Source of the DNA: Eledone cirrhosa
Taxonomy: Eukaryota
Length of the DNA stretch: 64,000 bases
Assembly (NCBI GenBank): GCA_964016885.1
Contig: OZ024750.1
Location: 37,324,001-37,388,000, forward strand
Direction: 5' to 3'
This document shows, in pieces, positions 1-13,864 of the stretch. How positions within the stretch are numbered: the first letter of the stretch is position 1; each line of letters starts with the position of its first letter. The notes under the pieces are model-generated. The model ran no database searches and was not told the origin of the DNA. It worked only from the letters and a program-made list of their open reading frames with translations. The translations under genes and the position numbers were made by a program.

Positions 1-524
1 ATTTGAAAAAAAGGCGTTTATACATTTAGTTTCGACACGTTGAAAAATAAAAAATATATATCAATTTTCGAAAGAAAAAAAATTAATCTTTTTTGAAAAA
101 AAACAATTTTTCGAAATACTGTGTAAAATGATCAATTTGTGAAAAACAATATAATAATAAAATAATCCATTTTTTTATACTTTTCGAAATATTTACTTCT
201 GATTTCTAAAATTGATTTTTTTAGGTTTTTCACAAATTGATCATTTTACACAGTATTTCGAAAAATTGTTTTTTTTCAAAAAAATGCGTTTATACATTGT
301 GTTTCGACACGTTGAAAAATTTTTTAAAAACACAAAATATATATCAATTTTCGAAATCAGAAAGTATATATTTCAAAAGAAAAAAAATCAATCATTTTTA
401 AAAAAAAACAATTTTTCGAAATACTGTGTAAAATGATCAATTTGTGAAAAACCTAAAATAATCAATTTTTTTATACCTTTCTTAATATTTACTTCTGATT
501 TCTAAAATTGATATTTTTTAGGTT
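1..524. repeat. AT-rich tandem satellite, left flank (about 2 monomers), same family as 13865-64000
   Basis: Same motifs as the main array (TTTCGACACGTTGAAAA; AAATACTGTGTAAAATGATCAATTTGTGAAAAACCTAAAA). Nearly identical to about 18467-18990. Ends at ...TTTTTTAGGTT (524). Confidence 0.97.
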
Positions 525-1088
525 GAGTTAAAGTTTGATTTATGATCTTTCAGGTTGAAGTGTGGTCTTTTCAATGCCAAAAGTTCAGTTCTATCTTCAA
601 TATTTAGTTTATTCACTATGTTGTGTGTTTTGTTGTTGATGTTGGTGAGTGACGCATTATTAGTTTTTCTATAATTTTTCCTGAGTTCTTTATATATGAA
701 CTCATTATAATTTTCAATATCCATGTGATATAAGTTTCCAGTTTTGTCCGAGTGGACATGGATTTTTTTAGACTTTTTTAGGTCCAATAGGGTAGAATCA
801 AGGTCCTTTTGAAAGATAGATTTATACTTCTTAAATTTGAGGTGTTTAATTAAATTAAAAAGGTCTTTCTCAAAGTCTTCAAGTAGAGAGTTGTGTGGTG
901 GATTCTTGTAAGTAGTGAAATCATACATATTTCCTATCTGCATATTTAGATTTTTTATCGAAGTGGTAGGCCCTCCATCTAACTCTTCTGATAAATTGGT
1001 TAGTTTTCTGTATCATAAGGAGTAAGAAGTCATCCTTAGAAGGTATTGGTATATTCTTTAAAGAAGTTCCCAAGTATTGTTTTTCCAT
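525..1088 (-). pseudogene. N-terminal fragment of the PLE ORF (3' tail copy), frameshifted and cut off by the satellite junction
   Basis: ORFs 921-1109 and 518-943 join across a 2-bp loss near 930 relative to the copy at about 6140. ATG of MEKQYLGTSLKNIPIPSK at 1088. Confidence 0.9.
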
Positions 1089-1437
1089 TGTGATATGGAT
1101 AATGGACAAGAGAAAGAGCTCAACTAAATGTATATGGAGTTATAAAATCATACATATATATGTATATACATAAATATAAAATTAACACACATATACAATA
1201 CAAAAATAAGAATATTTCCGTGAAAATAGGAGCAAATTATGTAGATAAATCTACCAAAAGTTTACGGTAGTGTCCAATCCGTATGAAGAACTCAATGTAA
1301 TCCGGATATTATGGAAAGAAGAGATGCATTCAAAAATCACTTTCGGTGAAAGATAAACGGAATACAGAGTCAAGATAAAATATTAAAAAAATAATGAATA
1401 AAACAATGAAACAGTTCCTTATATTAAACAAAAAAAG

Positions 1438-1580
1438 TTCATTATTTAACGATCGTTTCTAGGACATATATGTGTTAGAATTGGCATGCATATTCAAAAG
1501 ATCGATGTACAAACTTATACAAACTATCAAAGAGAATATACATACCATTACATATATATGCTGTCTTCAAAAATAATGAA
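1438..1580 (-). ncRNA. Variant or degenerate type I hammerhead ribozyme in the PLE 5' UTR (copy 1)
   Basis: Minus strand reads TTCATTATTT (stem I, 10 bp) - TTGAAGA - long stem II (CAGCATATATATG...CACATATATGTCCTA) - GAAAC-GATC-GTT - AAATAATGAA (stem I'). The stem III loop GATC is palindromic, as in minimal PLE hammerheads. There is a C.A mismatch at the base of stem II. Confidence 0.65.
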
Positions 1581-1825
1581 GTATATTTATTGATAACAAC
1601 AATTCAAAATTACAGGTCTGTTTGGGAACAGATTTTAAATAGACCAATGAAATACATAAAAATTAATCAAGAAAATACAGTTAGGTGTGTGTATATATGT
1701 AAGTAACTTCGTTCACAGATATGCATAAAAATGTATGTTCATATGCATACGCATGTCGAAAAAGTGTATGTAAATACAAAAATTCAGGGCTAATGTCTCT
1801 GTATGTTTATAATCCACAGACAAAA

Positions 1826-2362
1826 TATACATACATATACATATACATATACACACATATATACACACATATACATACATTCATACACACACACGCATAT
1901 ACACATAAACACACACATACCTACGAACACACACACATATATACACACACACACACACACATACGTATATATTATTATTATAACTATATGGATATTGAGG
2001 CGCACACATAAACACGGCCACGCACACTTACATCTAGATGCAGAATTAAAAGGAGGTAAGGGAGTAAGTAATTAAGGAGGGTGTCAGACTCAGCATATTT
2101 ATAAAAATGTATCTATAAATTTAGAAATAAAAAGAAATATAATAAAAGAAATATAATAAAAACATAAAAAACATAAAAGAGAGACATAAAATATACATGC
2201 ATTATACGCACATTTACACATCCATACGTTCGATACATACATACGTACACACACACACATACACATAGTTAACCTCACGCATATTAACCTGTTTGTATGC
2301 ATATACATAAAAACAAGTAAAACATATATTCATACATATAAATACACACCGATATATATATA

Positions 2363-2422
<60 letters not shown>

Positions 2423-2426
2423 CACA

Positions 2427-2468
<42 letters not shown>

Positions 2469-2532
2469 CACATACGCACAACACACATATATACATATAT
2501 GTACACACACATACACACATACATACACATAC

Positions 2533-2565
<33 letters not shown>

Positions 2566-2702
2566 CATATATATATAAACACATATATATACACACACAC
2601 ATACATATACGTATATATACATACACACACATACCCATGTATATATACACACAACCACACACTCACACACACTCAGACATACATAAATATAGAGACATAC
2701 AT

Positions 2703-2800
<98 letters not shown>

Positions 2801-3015
2801 ATAAATACACACAGTCAGACAATTATGCACATATATACACCTACATACACATATCTCTACAAATACATATACATACACATACATACATACACATATATAT
2901 ACATATATATATATATAGACAGTCATACACACTTATTTACATGCGCACATATGTATTTTTATACTCACATACAAACACACAAACATACATACATACTTAC
3001 ATACACATACATACA
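1826..3015. repeat. Compound (TA)n/(CA)n/(TACA)n microsatellite with short unique spacers, internal to the PLE unit
   Basis: Direct reading. Homologous to 7043-8157 plus 8946-9060, with different tract lengths. Confidence 0.95.
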
Positions 3016-3199
3016 TCCACGCTTACAAATACGAATAATTATGGGGGGGGGAGATTCAAATTATTAGTGGGAAATAGTAAATATAGGTTTCAAGGAACAT
3101 AGAATATTAATCTGCATTTAAATCATAATATGTGTTTACATAGTAGTGTCAGTATTAGGAAATGATATTTGTAAGAAAGAAGGCTAAATTATGCATTTT

Positions 3200-4035
3200 A
3201 ATATAAGTAGACTATTAATTATAGGTTAATTAAAGTAAAAATAGTTAATATATTAATTTCTAAGGTGTATACTACTTAGGTTTATAATATTTAAATCGGA
3301 ATTTTGAAGTTAAACAGTAGTAGAGTATTAATTATAGCATAACTAAATTAAAAATATTAACATGATGGTATCAATTTTAGGAAATGAATTCATCGGTAGT
3401 AGAATATTAATTATAGGTTAACTAAATTAAAAATTATATATTAATTTCTATAGTATATGTTAATTAGGTTTATAATAATTAAAGCAAAATTTTGTATTTT
3501 ATCTATAGTAGAATATAATTATAGGTTAACTAAATTAAAATTAATCTATATATTTATTTGTAAAGAATATATTAATTAGGTATATATTTAAAAGTTTTTC
3601 TCAGTTTATGATTACATGATATTCTGCAATCCATCTGTATTAGAATTTTAATTTTAAGCTAACTAAATTAAAATTATAGGTTAACTAAATTAAAATTAAT
3701 TTATAAATTAATTTCTAAATTGTATATTAATTAGGTTTGTAATATTAAAAAGTATTTCTCTGTTATTGATTACACGATATTTTGTTATATTTCATCTGGA
3801 AAGGAATTTTAATAAAAGGTTAAATAAACTAAAATTAATCTATATATTAATTTCCAAAGTATATATTAATTATGTTAATAATATTTAAAAGTTTATGATT
3901 ACACGATATTTAATTAAATTAAAATTATATGTTAACTACATTTAAATTAATTTATATATTAATTTCTAAAATATATATTATTAATTAGGTTTATAATATT
4001 TAAATGTTTTTCTCAGTTTATGATTACACGATATA
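3200..4035 (-). repeat. Degenerate tandem sub-repeats (about 100-160 bp) in the PLE 3' UTR, overlapping the ORF end
   Basis: TTATAGGTTAACTAAATTAAAA-like motif at about 3220, 3330, 3411, 3519 and 3674. GTTTATGATTACACGATAT-like motif at about 3604, 3763, 3891 and 4016. Confidence 0.8.
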
Positions 4036-6302
4036 ATTAATTCCTGTCCTTAGATTTCATTATTCTTGGGAACACAATCTACATTCATTTCTATTATTTT
4101 TCATAAGGGGTGGCTCTTTTGAGCACACTCCAGGTCATATCATATTCTATATTCTTATTTCTATAACTATTAATTTTTTCTGCTAGAGATGTTGTATTAG
4201 CCAGTGCGGCATTTTTAAAACTATGTTTGTGGGTATTAAACCTTACCTTAAAATTGTTAGAAGTAGCTCCTATATATGAGCAAATAGAATCTTTAGTTTT
4301 AACTTTACATTTATAAACTATGTTGTTAACAAGACAATTTCCTTTTAATGGGCAGTTTGCTTTGTTTCTACCTTTCGTTAATTCTGTATTTGAGGAGATA
4401 TTATGGTTAGTTTGATGTATTGGTGGTATACTTATGGTTTTTTACATTTATATGCATTTATAGGCACTTATATTTTGTTTTATGTTTTTGGTTGTTGAGT
4501 ATGAGAATTTAACTGTTGATCTATTTAAGATTTGACGGTATTTGTGGTTTGGCGGGAAGTTTTTCTCTAGGATATTAAAAAAATTTTTAGCAATATTATC
4601 CTTAATTTGTAAATTAAATGGAGCATTATACCAAGTAACTCGTCTATTACGGTTTCTATGTTGTTTATTGTTTTTATAGGATGCATGTTTACTAGGAGGA
4701 TTAATGCTAATGACCTCACCACGCGCATTTTAGTTAGATTTATTGATTTAGGTGTTTCAGCTTGTTTATTAGGAGTTTTATTATTAACATTTATTAGAGT
4801 TGTATGATGAGTAGTTTTTTGAGAGTTACTATACTTTATATTAGTTAGAGAAATTTGGTTTTATGTTGGTATTTTGGGGTATAGTGTGAGTGGCATTTAG
4901 GTGTGTACTTTTCATTTGGTGTTTGTTGGTAATATTAGGTTGTATGTTTATAGTGTTATTAGTAGAAGGTATATATTCCAATCTATTTTTGTGGCCACTT
5001 CTATCTAGAGCTTCGTTATAGAAGGTCGCATTTTTATCAAATACATCTTGTTTAGACGAAAGGTTAGAAATTCTAAGTGATATATTATATGCAAGGTTTT
5101 TAAGGATAGATTTAGGGTGATTAGATTGTGAGTGTATGTAGTGTAAGTTTTGGTTGGGTTTATGGTAAGGTTGGTAGATACCCGTAGCTAAGTCTAAAGT
5201 TATATCTAGGAAATCACTACTTTACTTGTGTTTTCAAAAGTAATATGAAGACTATAATAGTCTTTAAGGAAATTTCTAATAAGCTTTTTGTTTTTTTCTA
5301 TTTCTGAGAGGCTAAGGTTGTTGGAAAGAAGAAGACAGTCATCACGATATAAACCACCTTTAAGGTGGGGAAAGGAAGCATTTATGTTAAAAAGATCAGT
5401 AATTTGGGCAGAATCGCTTGAACCCATAGTAATATCAAATAGATTACTATATGTGTTTCTGGTCCAGTATTCATTCTGAAATTCAATAAGTGTTAGTCTA
5501 GCGTGTGTAATAATATTAATGTCATCCAAAGTTAAGTTAGATCTATTTTTAGCAAATATCAAAGCTTTGTTCAGGAGTATAGGTGATATAGAAGAATAGT
5601 AATTATCTATATCAAATTGTAGAAATGAAGCAGAAGATTTACATCTAATATTTTTAAACCAGTTAATTACCTGGGAAGTGTTTTCCCAGAGTGGTAAATT
5701 AACATGTTTTCTTATTTGTGGGATGGCTCTATCCAAAATTTTTTTGCTGATTATTCCAATATCAGATTTGGAGGGACATATAAGTCTTATAGAAGGATTT
5801 GAGTTAAAGTTTGATTTAGTTTATTCACTATGTTGTGTGTTTTGTTGTTGATGCTGGTGAGTGACGCATTATTAGTTTTTCTATAATTTTTCCTGAGTTC
5901 TTTATATATGAACTCATTATAATTTTCAATATCCATGTGATATAAGTTTCCAGTTTTGTCCGAGTGGACATGGATTTTTTTAGACTTTTTTAGGTCCAAT
6001 AGGGTAGAATCAAGGTCCTTTTGAAAGATAGATTTATACTTCTTAAATTTGAGGTGTTTAATTAAATTAAAAAGGTCTTTCTCAAAGTCTTCAAGTAGAG
6101 AGTTGTGTGGTGGATTCTTGTAAGTAGTGAAATCATACATATATTTCCTATGTGCATATTTAGATTTTTTATCGAAGTGGTAGGCCCTCCATCTAACTCT
6201 TCTGATAAATTGGTTAGTTTTCTGTATCATAAGGAGTAAGAAGTCATCCTTAGAAGGTATTGGTATATTCTTTAAAGAAGTTCCCAAGTATTGTTTTTCC
6301 AT
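3981..6302 (-). pseudogene. Full-length but disrupted PLE ORF: N-terminal domain, reverse transcriptase, linker, GIY-YIG endonuclease
   Basis: ORF pieces 5787-6323 and 5206-5736 carry RT motifs A, B' and C (YRDD). Deletion of about 70 bp at 5815 versus copy 1, frameshift near 5215, 9-bp deletion removing CNC at 4370, and small deletions near 4047-4065. Stop at 3981-3983 by homology to 10064. Confidence 0.92.
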
Positions 6303-6651
6303 TGTGATATGGATAATGGACAAGAGAAAGAGCTCAACTAAATGTATATGGAGTTATAAAATCATACATATATATGTATATACATAAATATAAAATTAAC
6401 ACACATATACAATACAAAAATAAGAATATTTCCGTGAAAATAGGAGCAAATTATGTAGATAAATCTACCAAAAGTTTACGGTAGTGTCCAATCCGTATGA
6501 AGAACTCAATGTAATCCGGATATCATGGAAAGAAGAGATGCATTCAAAAATCACTTTCGGTGAAAGATAAACGGAATACAGAGTCAAGATAAAATATTAA
6601 AAAAATAATGAATAAAACAATGAAACAGTTCCTTATATTAAACAAAAAAAG

Positions 6652-6794
6652 TTCATTATTTAACGATCGTTTCTAGGACATATATGTGTTAGAATTGGCA
6701 TGCATATTCAAAAGATCGATGTACAAAATTATACAAACTATCAAAGAGAATATACATACCATCACATATATATGCTGTCTTCAAAAATAATGAA
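6652..6794 (-). ncRNA. Variant or degenerate type I hammerhead ribozyme in the PLE 5' UTR (copy 2)
   Basis: Same architecture as 1438-1580. Here stem II has an 11-bp helix ATATATATGTG/CACATATATGT. Lies about 350 nt upstream of the ORF start, on the ORF strand. Confidence 0.68.
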
Positions 6795-7042
6795 GTATAT
6801 TTATTGATAATAACAACAATTCAAAATTACAGCTCTGTTTGGGAACAGATTTTAAATAGACCAATGAAATACATAAAAATTTATCAAGAAAATACAGTTA
6901 GGTGTGTGTATATATGTAAGTAACTTCGTTCACAGATATGCATAAAAATGTATGTTCACATGCATACGCATGTCGAAAAAGTGTATGTAAATACAAAAAT
7001 TCAGGGCTAATGTCTCTGTATGTTTATAATCCACAGACAAAA

Positions 7043-8157
<1,115 letters not shown>

Positions 8158-8192
8158 TGTAGACGCGTTCTTGAGACTAGTAAAATGAGGTA

Positions 8193-8280
8193 TCCTCTTG
8201 ATAAGTCGGCAGACCTCGCAAGGACTCTATATCTTTGATATATTGCTTTTGTTTATGCCACGAAACTACGTAGTCGAGGA
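8193..8280 (+). ncRNA. Type I hammerhead ribozyme, U3-A8 core variant; predicted cleavage after GUC at 8275
   Basis: TCCTC (stem I) - TTGATAA - stem II GT(C)GGCA...TGCCAC, extended by GCAA/TTGC and TATATC/GATATA - GAAAC-TACGTA-GTC - GAGGA (stem I'). Stem III ACTACGTAGT is palindromic. Confidence 0.88.
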
Positions 8281-8783
8281 ATTTAGGAGCAGTTTAGGTA
8301 TGATACATTTTATTACTAATTATATCTAAATGTTTCTTCTCTCTTCATAATGTATTTTTAACTCTGATACTGGTTCAGTCTGGTTCAAACTGAATTGGTC
8401 TGTCCCAGTCATTCATTGAGCAACATCGGTGAAGTTGGCACCCTTAACTCACAGTTGGGTGCGGATGCATTCATGTATATATGTGTGTGTCCGCATGTAT
8501 CTGTGTGTTTATAAATATATTAATAACTCCCTCTGGTCGAGCAATCTTTGAGGTGTGGGGACAACTGGAAAGCTTCCATTACTCATACTTCTCGCCTTCT
8601 TCACTACCTCTTCTACGGCCTCGATATGAATACCCCCTCCGCCTCCGTGGTATTTTCTTCGTGGTTATAAGAGGCTTAGCTCTGTTTCTCGACCGTTATA
8701 TCGCGTGACTATCTCCCCCTCCGCCTTTTGGGATTCTTTCTCACGTCGTGTAGACGCGTTCTTGAGACTAGTAAAATGAGGTA

Positions 8784-8871
8784 TCCTCTTGATAAGTCGG
8801 CAGACCTCGCAAGGACTCTATATCTTTGATATATTGTTTTTGTTTATGCCACGAAACTACGTAGTCGAGGA
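8784..8871 (+). ncRNA. Type I hammerhead ribozyme, U3-A8 core variant (second copy); predicted cleavage after 8866
   Basis: Identical to 8193-8280 except one C>T in distal stem II. Offset 591. Confidence 0.88.
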
Positions 8872-9259
8872 ATTTAGGAGCAGTTTAGGTATGATACATT
8901 TTATTACTAATTATATCTAAATGTTTCTTCTCTCTTCATAATGTACATATATATATATATAGACACTCATACACACTTATTTACATGCGCACATATGTAT
9001 TTTTATACTCACATACAAACACACAAACATACATACATACTTACATACACATACATACATCCACGCTTACAAATACGAATAATTATGGGGGGGAGGGGGG
9101 ATTAAAATTATTAGTGGGAAATAGTAAATATAGGTTTCAAGGAACATAGAATATTAATCTGCATGTAAATGATAATATGTGTTTACATAGTAGTGTCAGT
9201 ATTAGGAAATGATATTTGTAAGAAAGAAGGCTAAATTATGCATTTTAATATAAGTAGAC

Positions 9260-10115
9260 TATTAATTATAGGTTAATTAAAGTAAAAATAGTTAATATAT
9301 TAATTTCTAAGGTGTATACTACTTAGGTTTATAATATTTAAATCGGAATTTTGAAGTTAAACAGTAGTAGAGTATTAATTATAGCATAACTAAGTTAAAA
9401 ATATTAACATGATGGTATCAATTTTAGGAAATGAATTCATCGGTAGTAGAATATTAATTATAGGTTAACTAAATTAAAAATTATATATTAATTTCTATAG
9501 TATATGTTAATTAGGTTTATAATAATTAAAGCAAAATTTTGTATTTTATCTATAGTAGAATATAATTATAGGTTAACTAAATTAAAATTAATCTATATAT
9601 TTATTTGTAAAGAATATATTAATTAGGTATATATTTAAAAGTTTTTCTCAGTTTATGATTACATGATATTCTGCAATCCATCTGTATTAGAATTTTAATT
9701 TTAAGCTAACTAAATTAAAATTATAGGTTAACTAAATTAAAATTAATTTATAAATTAATTTCTAAATTGTATATTAATTAGGTTTGTAATATTAAAAAGT
9801 ATTTCTCTGTTATTGATTACACGATATTTTGTTATATAGATTAATTTTAGTTTATTTAACCTTTTATTAAAATTCCTTTACAGATGAAATATATTAATTT
9901 CCAAAGTATATATTAATTATGTTAATAATATTTAAAAGTTTTTCACAGTTTATGATTACACGATATTTTTTAATTTCATCTGTAGCAGAATTTTAATTAA
10001 ATTAAAATTATATCTTAACTACATTTAAATTAATTTATATATTAATTTCTAAAATATATATTATTAATTAGGTTTATAATATTTAAATGTTTTTCTCAGT
10101 TTATGATTACACGAT
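9260..10115 (-). repeat. Degenerate 3' UTR sub-repeats of the upstream PLE copy
   Basis: Homologous to 3200-4035. Includes an inversion of about 60 bp at 9833-9892. Confidence 0.8.
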
Positions 10116-11649
10116 ATAATTAATTCCTGTCGCTTATTTAATAGGATATCCTTAGAATTCATTATTTCAAATAGTTCTTGGGAACACAATCTACATTCAT
10201 TTCTATTATTTTGATAAGGGGTGGCTCTTTTGAGCACACTCCAGGTCATATCATATTCTATATTCTTATTTCTATAACTATTAATTTTTTCTGCTAGAGA
10301 TGTTGTATTAGCCAGTGCGGCATTTTTAAAACTATGTTTGTGGGTATTAAACCTTACCTTAAAATTGTTAGAAGTAGCTCCTATATATGAGCAAATAGAA
10401 TCTTTAGTTTTAACTTTACATTTATAAACTATGTTGTTAACAAGACAATTTCCTTTTAATGGGCAGTTTGCTTTGTTTCTACAGTTACAACCTTTCGTTA
10501 ATTCTGTATTTGAGGAAATATTATGGTTAGTTTGATGTATTGGTGGTATACTTATGGTTTTTTTACATTTATATGCATTATAGGCACTTATATTTTGTTT
10601 TATGTTTTTGGTTGTTGAGTATGAGAATTTAACTGTTGATCTATTTAAGATTTGATGGTATTTGTGGTTTGGCGGGAAGTATTTCTCTAGGATATTAAAA
10701 TTTTTTTTAGCAATATCATCCTTAATTTGTAAATTAAATGGAGCATTATACCAAGTAACTCGTCTATTACGGTTTCTATGTTGTTTATTGTTTTTATAGG
10801 ATGCATGTTTACTAGGAGGATTAATATTAATGACCTCACCACGCGCATTTTTAGTTAGATTTATTGATTTAGGTGTTATTATTAACATTTATTAGAGTTG
10901 TATGATGAGTAGTTTTTTGAGAGTTACTATACTTTATATTAGAGGAGTTAGAGAAATTTGGTTTTATGTTGGTATTTTGGGGTATAGTGTGAGTGGCATT
11001 TAGGTGTGTACTTTTCATTTGGTGTTTGTTGGTAATATTAGGTTGTATGTTTATAGTGTTATTAGTAGAAGGTATATATTCCAATCTATTTTTGTGGCCA
11101 CTTCTATCTAGAGCTTCGTTATAGAAGGTCGCATTTTTATCAAATACATCTTGGTTAGACGAAAGGTGGCTAGAAATTCTAAGTGATATATTATATGCAA
11201 GGTTTTTAAGGATAGATTTAGGGTGATTAGATTGTGAGTGTATGTAGTGTAAGTTTTGGTTGGGTTTATGGTAAGGTTGGTAGATACCCGTAGCTAAGTC
11301 TAAAGTTATATCTAGGAAATTAACTACTTTACTTGTGTTTTCAAAAGTAATATGAAGACTATAATAGTCTTTAAGGAAAGTTCTAAGCTTTTCTATTTCT
11401 GAGAGGCTAAGGTTGTTGGAAAGAAGAAGACAGTCATCACGATATAAACCACCTTTAAGGTGGGGAAAGGAAGCATTTATGTTAAAAAGATCAGTAATTT
11501 AGGCAGAATCGCTTGAACCCATAGTAATATCAAATAGATTACTATATGTGTTTCTGGTCCAGTATTCATTCTGAAATTCAATAAGTGTTAGTCTAGCATG
11601 TGTAATAATATTAATGTCATCCAAAGTTAAGTTAGATCTATTTTTAGCA
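10064..11649 (-). pseudogene. 5'-truncated PLE ORF: C-terminal half of the RT (frameshifted) and an open GIY-YIG endonuclease region (10064-10888)
   Basis: ORF 10064-10888 reads VTWYNAPFN...TVKFSYST...CNCR...CPLKGNCL..IVY...SYIGATSNNFKVRFNTHKHSF...CRLC..E...[20 protein letters not shown] and YRDD at about 11430-11530. Truncated by (TA)n at 11649. Confidence 0.92.
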
Positions 11650-12266
<617 letters not shown>

Positions 12267-12324
12267 AACTAGTATTGAGTACCTCACTTACTGTGGTTAT
12301 CCCCGACTCAACCCGGGACCTACG

Positions 12325-12525
<201 letters not shown>

Positions 12526-12530
<5 letters not shown>

Positions 12531-13231
12531 TAAATTAGCGAGAATCGTTTTCAGCTCAGGAATTAACGAAAATCAACGTCCGATATGTGTGGCAAGCGCT
12601 CGATGAATCATATGAATCAGAGCTACAACATACGTTAAGGGCCAAACACACTGAGATGATGGTTAAACAGATCATCCGCACAATCAAAATCAAAACGACC
12701 AAGTAATTCGGGTCAAACAATAAAAATATATGTGTTGATACTTTCCCGGACCCTGGACTGATGGTAAAATCCAGTATTGGTTTCTGCGACTCCAAATCAG
12801 GTACTGTCCGCCTACATAAAGAATGTTGGGCTTCTGGTGAGATGATGAACAAGGCAGTCGTGGTTTCAACGGGTTTTGCTCCAATATGCTATAGATAGTG
12901 TAGCTATTACTGACCCCTCGTGGGATTCAGCAAGGGAGGTAACACCTCTATTAAGCGAATGATTCAGTTGTGTATTATTGCGAGAATGCAAAATATCACA
13001 AATCGAATTAAAGCTCTCAACAGAATGGTTAAATATAACAGAGCCATTCAACAGTCAATATATGTAACTGAAAAAAATCAATAAAATTAACTGCTCAATA
13101 GCTAGACTCTGGAGATTAATACAAATATAAATTAGCGAGAATCGTTTTCAGCTCAGGAATTAACGAAAATCAACGTCCGATATGTGTGGCAAGCGCTCGA
13201 TGAATCATATGAATCAGAGCTACAACATACG

Positions 13232-13234
<3 letters not shown>
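12526..13234. mobile_element. Putative non-autonomous element: 597-bp unit with identical 112-bp terminal direct repeats, inserted in (TA)n
   Basis: 12526-12637 equals 13123-13234. Flanked on both sides by TA tracts. Many short hairpins and no credible ORF. Confidence 0.78.
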
Positions 13235-13387: not shown

Positions 13388-13864
13388 ATAAATTAACGGA
13401 GGCATAGGCCGTCGTTATTCCCTGTAAATAATGTGCTCAAAGGGGAAGAGATCCTGAGCCCTTTAAAATATAATATGTTGAGAAGGTAACACACCAGAGA
13501 GAGATATATAGTGCGTTATCAATAATACAGGGAAAAAACCACCAGTGTATGGAATCTATAACCTATGAAAGGCACGATAATTAAAAATATAAATTAAAGC
13601 GTAAATAAATACCTTTATAACTATATAACACACGTACAAATCCAAAGATATGTTTCACCAGAAAATTTGTTGAAAAAAATGGTCTAGTCTCGGTTCATCA
13701 GCGTGTGTAAGGCCATACATTTCAGACAACACTAAGAGGATTTTACAACATATCTTTGGATTTGTACGTGTGTTATATAGTTATAAAGGTATTTATTTAC
13801 GCTTTAATTTATATTTTTAATTATCGTGTCTATAGTCTGCCTTTCATAGGTTATAGATTCCATA
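13383..13864 (-). mobile_element. Hammerhead-containing pLTR-like fragment of a different PLE or retrozyme family, with an inverted terminal duplication
   Basis: Contains the hammerhead at 13628-13708. 13548-13654 is inverted at 13747-13864 with an 11-nt insertion. No visible similarity to the Naiad-like UTR. Confidence 0.7.
13628..13708 (-). ncRNA. Canonical type I hammerhead ribozyme; predicted cleavage after GUA (between 13635 and 13634)
   Basis: Minus strand reads ACACACG (stem I) - CTGATGA - ACC(G)AGA...TCTGGT (stem II) - GAAAC-ATATC-TTTG-GATTT-GTA - CGTGTGT (stem I'). Confidence 0.92.

Follow-up and report, generated by a model that had tools for sequence, protein, structure and literature searches.

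A 591-nt retrozyme-like family of Eledone cirrhosa with two fixed 3' ends and head-to-head insertions in TA repeats

Retrozymes, Penelope-like elements and the 591-nt unit

Metazoan non-LTR retrozymes (LTR, long terminal repeat) are described as non-coding tandem repeats of below 50% GC with a type I hammerhead ribozyme in each unit and a structured monomer, and Penelope-like elements (PLEs) occur alongside them (Cervera and de la Pena 2020, PMC7229834; review PMC7761336). Both papers propose retrozymes to be circles mobilised by PLEs, and in their model the reverse transcriptase (RT) makes a longer-than-unit cDNA from the circle. More recently, retrozymes were presented as non-autonomous PLE derivatives with units of 51-972 bp and homology to the PLE pseudo-LTR (pLTR) (Li, Clavereau, Pollet 2026, 10.64898/2026.07.22.740005). 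The return of retrozyme circles to the genome, the role of PLE hammerheads, and the origin of tandem, inverted and tailed PLE insertions are called open questions (10.64898/2026.07.22.740005, PMC8557442, PMC7229834, PMC7761336). The present work deals with a 591-nt unit of this kind, found in a 64,000-nt stretch of the 3.0 Gb genome of Eledone cirrhosa (the window, G000:C10:37324001-37388000), and with its family. Published systems are compared from the accessible parts of the cited papers.

The copies of the unit lie in TA repeats and have scattered 5' ends, two fixed 3' ends (A and B), head-to-head arms that combine A with B, one haplotype per insertion, and a conserved hammerhead core. We consider it likely that the unit is a non-LTR retrozyme whose tandem transcript would cleave itself, circularise, and be reverse-transcribed in trans by a PLE protein of the Hydra clade from both nicked (TA)n strands; the cleavage, the circle and the partner are predictions from the sequence. 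Indeed, the unit appears to work like a non-LTR retrozyme, of which it has the sequence-level features, while descent from a known PLE pLTR was not found.

The unit shares with metazoan non-LTR retrozymes the features named above, and like them it has no fixed LTR and a target-site duplication (TSD) longer than 4 bp (15 bp at the window). In contrast, their monomers measure 170-400 nt with mostly canonical hammerheads, whereas the unit has 591 nt, a U3-A8 core and a 57-nt stem II. The first-pass annotation of the window had noted that described animal monomers are shorter, which holds for this range but not for the newer one of 51-972 bp (10.64898/2026.07.22.740005). Their circles were shown by northern blot, whereas that of the unit is predicted. 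Fixed priming sites, inverted A+B insertions and a haplotype test are not reported in the accessible parts of PMC7229834 and PMC7761336. Like the retrozymes of Li et al. (2026), the unit falls within the range of 51-972 bp, forms monomer-to-multimer arrays, and co-occurs with PLEs. There, however, the link to PLEs was made by pLTR homology and co-distribution, while here it is made by the insertion signature, with no homology to the tested PLE. The mechanism is left open in that study, and its descriptors may exclude a 57-nt stem II. Plant LTR retrozymes (10.64898/2026.07.22.740005, PMC7229834) resemble the unit in circle size range and ribozyme-released monomer, but have a type III hammerhead, fixed LTRs, a primer-binding site and polypurine tract, a 4-bp TSD and a Gypsy partner. 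Identity with them was rejected owing to the type I topology, the variable repeat and the 15-bp TSD.

Both flanks of the window insertion align to one unbroken stretch of a sister copy of the host PLE, of which 15 nt (2900-2914) are duplicated around it. The sequence at 8159-8943 was therefore truly inserted into a TA tract; it lies on the other strand than the host PLE (Table 1). TSDs are readable in 3 of 131 insertions overall. The 197-bp repeats lie 591 bp apart and differ by a single mismatch (8246 C / 8837 T); their length is 197 bp because this is the distance from a chance 5' truncation to site A. Fixed LTR-like repeats were rejected, as the repeat length varies with truncation. The first-pass annotation had proposed the direct repeats, an empty site at about 2900-2920, and a non-coding interior, all of which were confirmed: the longest ATG open reading frame (ORF) of the circular unit has 75 aa (GC 0.42). 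Its reading as a retrozyme-like insertion is supported, too, although it overlooked that there is another fixed 3' end and that head-to-head arms combine A with B. The description as bounded by two hammerheads had to be given up, as arms span 0.1-7.3 units, truncation sets the repeat length, and the left boundary is no terminus. Nesting in the TA microsatellite of a PLE is real at this locus but incidental to TA targeting. The whole region is segmentally duplicated on C10, with insertion and flanks identical at three places (L001-L003; also L071-L073, L161-L162).

The 591-nt monomer folds well (z -5.87, 0/100 shuffles as good), in agreement with the earlier description as hairpin-rich. The motifs named there are in place, i.e., the inverted pairs TTCAGT 8374/ACTGAA 8389, GCACCC 8438/GGGTGC 8457 and GCGGATGCAT 8461/GTGTGTCCGC 8485, and CCCCCTCCGCCT twice (8633, 8715). 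The GCACCC/GGGTGC pairing, however, is absent from the predicted folds and not retained in older subfamilies. The two conserved C-rich CCCCCTCCGCCT boxes may be internal promoter elements; presumably, they resemble GC boxes.

Fixed ends and the copied template

The 591-nt family is real, high-copy, young and recently active. The exact hammerhead-core pattern has 6,378 matches in the genome and its reversed control 1, with U3-A8 in 99 of the 100 core matches listed. End A joined to TA has 2,674 exact matches (reversed control 1), and one form of end B joined to TA has 643 (reversed control 0). Similarity search with the unit gave 372 candidates, and among the 40 scored, full-length matches were 98-100% identical. 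The unit is a tandem repeat dispersed over many contigs in (TA)n, with a period of 591 (593-598 in old subfamilies) and up to 7.3 units. Copies with variable repeat length and TA flanks, for which the first-pass annotation had proposed a genome-wide search, are common, and two outcomes it had weighed did not occur: the unit is multi-copy, and it is not the untranslated region of a longer autonomous PLE. All 78 end-A loci taken in order along C1 hold the non-coding unit and none an autonomous PLE end. A role as untranslated region of the host PLE was rejected. A satellite formed by unequal crossing-over was also rejected, the arrays being short and dispersed with fixed TA-joined ends.

Counts were made in a main set of 96 non-redundant loci. 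The similarity search supplied 16 of them (14 overlapping or duplicated ones dropped), and its match list another 20. From C1 came the first 38 end-A loci, together with 20 of 22 further core sites and 2 end-B sites within its first 57 Mb. The 40 end-A sites that follow make up a held-out set. Thirty loci picked by a mutated motif were excluded. Unit positions are counted from window base 8158.

The 3' ends of 216 pieces fall at A (unit 197-198) in 117 cases, at B (363-365) in 90, and elsewhere in 9. The two sites, ~166 nt apart, account for 146/151 pieces of the main set and 61/65 of the held-out set, and TA follows 203 of the 207 A or B ends. The 5' ends are spread out and peak at hairpin bases, with 15 at unit 289-298 and 11 at 127-136 where 3.65 per 10 nt would be expected. 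The base G195, which lies three bases inside end A, is replaced by A in 20/117 terminal units and in 0/215 internal ones, as expected if the TA primer pairs across by G-T wobble. The PLE insertion signature is present in full: 5' truncation, partial tandem, inverted copy, one-end tail and microsatellite target.

In head-to-head insertions, each arm is directed outward into TA. Junctions of the main set are A+B in 47 of 50 cases (one locally duplicated locus counted twice), with 1 B+B, 0 A+A and 2 other; the held-out set has 20/21 A+B and 1 other. Overall, 67/71 junctions are A+B and 0/71 A+A, and the overlap is mostly 0-5 nt. A+A was never seen in the 78 loci selected for an A end, where it could show. 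This strict lack suggests that both primings take place on one RNA and that each site is used once. It is most improbable that the head-to-head copies arose after insertion, either because one cDNA folded back or because the TA tract received another, independent insertion. TA tracts do draw repeated insertions, as seen from separate copies in L023, L214 and L216. This origin is nonetheless largely refuted by the missing A+A junctions and by private alleles common to both arms, and a fold-back origin was rejected because neither arm contains the other in 6/50 junctions.

In L1 twin priming, both target strands prime on one RNA, which yields an inverted 5' part. There, the position of the second site varies, and the arms are copied from separate, non-overlapping stretches of a linear RNA, whereas both sites of the unit are fixed and its arms overlap by whole turns. 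PLE tails and inverted copies (Craig et al. 2021, PMC8557442; Frangieh et al. 2024, PMC11167929) are closer to the unit in their partial tandems, inverted 5'-truncated copies and one-end extension. As in the model for the unit, the PLE of Frangieh et al. has two internal RT starts, cutting and extension of both target strands, and a predicted dimer; an RT dimer with two active sites would, by analogy, serve the unit (PMC11167929). However, the PLE tail measures 30-40 bp (PMC8557442) against ~166 nt in the unit and 137 in the host PLE. Craig et al. ascribed the tail to endonuclease resolution, while the arms of the unit nearly always use different sites of one template. In the PLE of Frangieh et al., no difference in start site between the strands and no homology to the target were seen, whereas the sites of the unit resemble TA. 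Searches of the literature outside subscription papers found no paper that connects PLEs or retrozymes with twin priming, a one-site-per-strand rule, haplotype-based rolling-circle evidence or ADAR; end pairing may be visible in supplementary figures of PMC11167929 and PMC8557442.

The proposed cycle would start with transcription of any copy longer than one unit, and read-through transcription of retrozymes has been proposed (PMC7761336). The transcript would be cleaved as a paired double hammerhead, which would leave the single circle resistant. The 591-nt RNA would be ligated by a host ligase of RtcB type, as for other animal retrozymes; RtcB ligation was shown for axolotl and mussel RNAs (PMC7229834). 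Two RT active sites would then sit at A and B of one RNA, and priming at each would come from one of the nicked TA strands, paired with the AU-rich site. With strand displacement, each RT could circle for 0.1-7 turns and leave the template intact. Finally, the two cDNAs would be joined head-to-head at short microhomologies, or one would be captured as a single arm, as in the window.

The template can be followed by its alleles. Forty common polymorphic sites were compared. Between tandem units of the same arm, alleles match in 4390/4400 pairs of the main set (expected 0.78) and in 781/785 of the held-out set. Adjacent arms agree in 2845/2853 and 396/402 pairs, and arms of different insertions in 0.773. 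In the main set, 22 locus-private alleles occupy all copies of their insertion; for instance, four such alleles of L132 are found in 7-8 copies each, on both arms. Where a private allele fills only part of an insertion, it mostly occupies a single copy (116/119), which indicates that DNA-level homogenisation is rare and that the uniformity comes from a unit-length template. Such a bottleneck, with new alleles fixed in every unit and post-insertion ones single, also speaks against an uncut concatemer transcript from long uniform arrays, twin-primed at A and B, for which hammerhead and circle would be dispensable. This alternative is unlikely, even though unprocessed multi-copy RNA serves the anole PLE as template in vitro and insertion is normal in its hammerhead mutants (PMC11167929). 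Arrays of 5-7 units are present (L032, L132, L207), and precise crossings of the cut site are predicted by concatemers too. With a median arm of 700 nt, however, arrays would shrink every generation, and the hammerhead core is conserved across 28% divergence.

In the main set, 82/146 arms are longer than one unit, the longest with 7.3 units, and 132/146 traverse the cut site. Of 307 crossings, 306 are gap-free and one has an 8-nt deletion (L226). Other non-LTR RTs are known for end-to-end template jumps, which mostly leave gained or lost bases. A cleaved linear 591-nt monomer on which the RT jumps from the 5' end to the 3' end of the same molecule would need no covalent circle; we find this quite improbable, given the gap-free crossings and the mere 2/216 5' ends at unit 115-123. 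Its traces could be the two pieces that start exactly at the predicted cut (L232, L240; 2/216) and the deletion in L226. Between the two mechanisms offered by the first-pass annotation, reading around a circle is better supported than a template jump, as there is also one haplotype per insertion. The summed arms exceed one unit in 62/71 junctions, which shows that the template survives copying, and both arms run past the cut site in 46. PLE RTs are not known to have RNase H.

Concatemers made beforehand, by transcription of excised circular DNA or by RNA-to-RNA replication, and then twin-primed would also account for the single haplotype per insertion and the precise junctions, and RNA-RNA replication has been suggested for retrozymes (PMC7229834). 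Nevertheless, they require an extra step and are very unlikely: a motif scan found no hammerhead on the opposite strand of the unit, and a DNA circle alone leaves the conserved ribozyme and the sense-strand A>G skew (see below) unexplained. A covalent RNA circle is most simply the account of uniform, gap-free, multi-turn arms.

Predicted ribozyme, possible RNA stage and likely partner enzyme

The motif in every tandem unit can be read as a type I hammerhead of the non-canonical U3-A8 variant. Each repeat has stem I UCCUC/GAGGA, the core UUGAUAA (U3-A8), a stem II region of 57 nt, GAAA, and a palindromic loop-less stem III, CUACGUAG, with a predicted cut after GUC at 8275 and 8866. The first-pass annotation had seen a complete type I hammerhead in each repeat; the type I layout is indeed present twice, but stems II and III and the core are non-canonical. 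In hammerhead 1, a pair in distal stem II is disrupted by a private C at 8246. A U3-A8 core has been described before in minimal PLE hammerheads (Cervera and de la Pena 2014, PMC4209133), which presumably work as dimers and show poor cleavage in vitro. They share with the unit a covariant U3-A8 core, a short helix I, an enlarged helix II, and a palindromic helix III fit for dimer cleavage. The unit differs by its far longer helix II and by the lack of an extra base between positions 9 and 10.1, and its hammerhead belongs to a non-autonomous tandem unit, whereas the minimal ones lie in the pLTR.

Ribozyme function is supported by conservation of the core, which is kept in subfamilies of only 72-81% identity. 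Sites variable in at least 2 loci make up 2/33 positions in core and stems I/III against 123/558 elsewhere (p 0.027). In 19 diverged copies, 97.2% of the hammerhead alignment cells are paired, compared with 34-57% in slid controls. For 8158-8945, the double hammerhead (-219.4 kcal/mol) is favoured by 9.5 kcal/mol over two monomer hammerheads (-209.9), with a free minimum of -229.1. The start of 2/216 pieces right at the predicted cut also agrees with a hammerhead. Unconstrained folding of 8185-8290 does not yield the hammerhead (z +1.34). In the whole circle, 49/64 recurrent changes at confident pairs preserve pairing, and transitions at Watson-Crick pairs keep it in 26 cases and break it in 8 (p 0.003, hand count). 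Rfam microRNA matches in the window were dismissed as microsatellite artefacts.

An RNA stage is also suggested by base changes. Among fixed alleles of the main set, A>G outnumbers T>C by 22 to 8, while unit-specific ones show 5 vs 22 (p 5e-5). The held-out set has 9:4 and 2:9, respectively (p 0.019), and both sets combined 24 vs 10 and 7 vs 31 (p 1e-5). The 5' neighbours of fixed A>G alleles are U (13), A (6), C (4) and G (1). The neighbour preference of ADAR is similar. In L154, three such alleles are clustered in hairpin A. RNA editing of the unit is only suggested by this, as selection for G-U-tolerant pairing would produce the same skew; with either cause, the + strand RNA would be the selected molecule.

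In sequencing runs X3 and X5 (two studies, organisms B and C), the unit appears as single contigs of 621 and 620 nt, i.e., unit length plus 30. The X5 contig has a joint that leads back by 591; the same assembly would result from tandem DNA. Both runs, under other organism labels, hold single near-identical unit haplotypes at a depth of ~8, for which a related host, mislabelling, contamination and transfer are indistinguishable. On a control stretch (satellite plus PLE ORF, 30 bins), X1 covered all bins, X6 the ORF and not the satellite, and X3/X5 almost nothing; this would suit RNA libraries but was not used as evidence, as a lack of cover is no proof.

The Hydra clade of PLEs is described with a C-terminal GIY-YIG domain, an RWK-like motif, DKT, a CxCX5C linker, and (TA)n as target (PMC8557442). 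The host PLE has these motifs and the TA target; it was assigned to the clade by motifs, and 119 homologues were found. Its 813-aa protein carries RWR, DKT and CxCX5C, in which the first C is F in one copy and C in the window copy. Many copies of the family are 96-100% identical, with open frames of ~830 codons. Its unit of >5 kb and its non-canonical hammerhead-like motif differ from the <3 kb and the canonical hammerhead of the clade. Pfam gave nothing useful for four PLE frames, and no solved structure matched.

Moreover, the host PLE has two fixed TA-joined ends 137 nt apart, with 3,374 and 6,048 exact junctions in the genome, and 29/31 outward end pairs within 16 kb are mixed A+B (first 75 Mb of C1). 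In four inverted copies, the arms differ by 4-8 mismatches, compared with 29-120 between insertions. Its hammerhead-like motif has a stem II of 104-116 nt, lies 73 and 210 nt before the fixed ends, and gave 0 matches in 200 shuffles. As in the unit (there 80 and 245-247 nt before the ends), the hairpin that follows begins with the 3' strand of stem I. The link between unit and PLE rests on this shared insertion signature and end anatomy, not on sequence homology. By analogy, a Hydra-type PLE protein is likely the kind of partner used by the retrozyme, the assignment being to a kind and not to an exact family. The motif is also found at L101:2116-2270; it escapes short-stem descriptors, and related families in L114 and L119 differ in stem I.

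Several points weigh against the proposed retrozyme cycle. As for the ribozyme, Rfam gave no hammerhead at gathering score in the window, nor at E up to 10 over 7900-9200, so the hammerhead-model search proposed by the first-pass annotation came out negative. The alignment of the 19 copies has no pair changed on both sides and does not exceed shuffles, so that covariation is not shown, and the predicted active fold is 5-10 kcal/mol less stable than the minimum. Cleavage is poor in minimal PLE hammerheads (PMC4209133), and 8/9 frog elements failed to cleave (10.64898/2026.07.22.740005). One PLE studied in vitro prefers unprocessed RNA and uses start sites non-homologous to the target (PMC11167929). 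The A>G skew is non-significant when only rare alleles are counted (10 vs 7, p 0.09), and alleles that first appear in the held-out set do not show it (2 vs 2). Since 78/136 loci were selected for an A end, B+B is under-sampled. Unit-specific variants shared between loci number 19, which equals the upper limit of the null range (mean 11.6, 95% 6-19), and 10/19 fall in a low-complexity stretch; this check for inherited mixed arrays gave no clear excess, yet not a clean negative. Finally, comparison with 20 host-family loci gave only low-complexity matches and no homology between unit and host PLE, and pattern searches found no autonomous element with the stem III of the unit. A canonical core with this stem III had 0 genome matches, as had a pattern from a related X6 contig end. 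When another base was allowed before GAAA, the 30 fetched among 94 matches were 25 unit copies and 5 unrelated sequences.

Neighbouring repeats and wider meaning

Table 1. Features of the window (positions counted from its first base)
Feature	Position	Strand	Remarks
Insertion, 1.33 units of the 591-nt unit	8159..8943	+	5'-truncated, ends at fixed site A
Target-site duplication, left copy	8144..8158	.	up to 15 bp, within TA tract
Target-site duplication, right copy	8944..8958	.
Empty site in sister PLE copy	2900..2914	.
197-bp direct repeat, 5' copy	8158..8354	+	partial unit left by truncation
197-bp direct repeat, 3' copy	8749..8945	+
Predicted 591-nt monomer / circular RNA	8276..8866	+	42% GC, non-coding
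Variant type I hammerhead 1 (predicted)	8193..8280	+	stem I 8193-8197/8276-8280, core UUGAUAA 8198-8204, stem II 8205-8261, GAAA 8262-8265, stem III (palindromic) 8266-8273; cut predicted after 8275
Variant type I hammerhead 2 (predicted)	8784..8871	+	predicted cut after 8866; predicted double hammerhead with hammerhead 1
Hairpin A	8276..8345	+	begins with 3' strand of stem I, stops ~10 nt before site A
Fixed 3' end / putative priming site A	8346..8355	+	unit 197-198, 80 nt past cut; copy used at locus 8937-8945
Hairpin upstream of site B	8448..8507	+	5' ends accumulate at base (15/216 at unit 289-298)
Fixed 3' end / putative priming site B	8512..8522	+	unit 363-365, 245-247 nt past cut
CCCCCTCCGCCT box 1	8633..8644	+	mostly retained in subfamilies of 72-88% identity
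CCCCCTCCGCCT box 2	8715..8726	+
Host Hydra-clade PLE, decayed partial tandem	520..11654	-	RT and C-terminal GIY-YIG, period ~5.2 kb
Hammerhead-like motif of host PLE	6652..6794	-	104-nt stem II; stem III palindromic; cut predicted after 6662; mutated core in this copy
Second copy of host PLE hammerhead-like motif	1438..1580	-
Second high-copy non-coding tandem family	12526..13234	-	597-bp unit, 112-bp direct repeat

The 597-bp family (3,482 genome candidates) has one fixed TA-joined 3' end in 19/19 loci and no inversions, which indicates that the A+B pattern is not general to TA-targeted repeats. Its 5' ends cluster at unit 375-401 in about half of the 19 loci. Neither a hammerhead nor an Rfam match was found in it; the family may conceal another ribozyme.

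Further elements were noted. At 13397-13860, a TA tract contains another element, part of which is inverted (13570-13831); on its minus strand, a hammerhead-like motif, CTGATGA...GAAA, lies at ~13650-13710. A short unique fragment between TA tracts at 12269-12322 is probably the truncated end of another TA-targeting element. Most of the window (1-520 and 13860-64000) is an AT-rich satellite of ~270 bp with an internal palindrome. Elsewhere in the genome, L118:57-1484 is a tandem array of period 465-466 with a canonical CUGAUGA type I hammerhead per unit, i.e., another retrozyme-like family; a related motif lies at L120:170, and a further family occurs in L084, L102, L113 and L117. Long open frames of a different PLE-like element lie beside a Hydra-clade copy at L115:3500-8702.

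The 591-nt family makes the open questions on retrozymes and PLEs countable, namely the template per insertion, the turns past the cut, and a near-absolute A+B rule common to an open-frame autonomous PLE. Its interest lies in a mechanism made testable by the copies and not in the size of the unit. Judging by its sequences, the family may be unusually direct genomic evidence for the proposed rolling-circle reverse transcription of a retrozyme circle. The haplotype test is applicable to any retrozyme or PLE family in long-read genomes, and the family provides a matched small RNA and candidate enzyme for in vitro work. Furthermore, an RT that targets TA and copies a small circle from internal sites would be of interest for RNA-templated insertion tools.

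On balance, we lean slightly towards a wider reading, in which the insertions would be a genomic record of rolling-circle reverse transcription from two RT sites on one circular, sometimes A-to-I edited RNA. If this is true, the same one-site-per-strand rule in the Hydra-clade PLE would be the general source of PLE tails and inverted copies, and long-stem hammerheads overlooked by current descriptors would mark a hidden class of elements.

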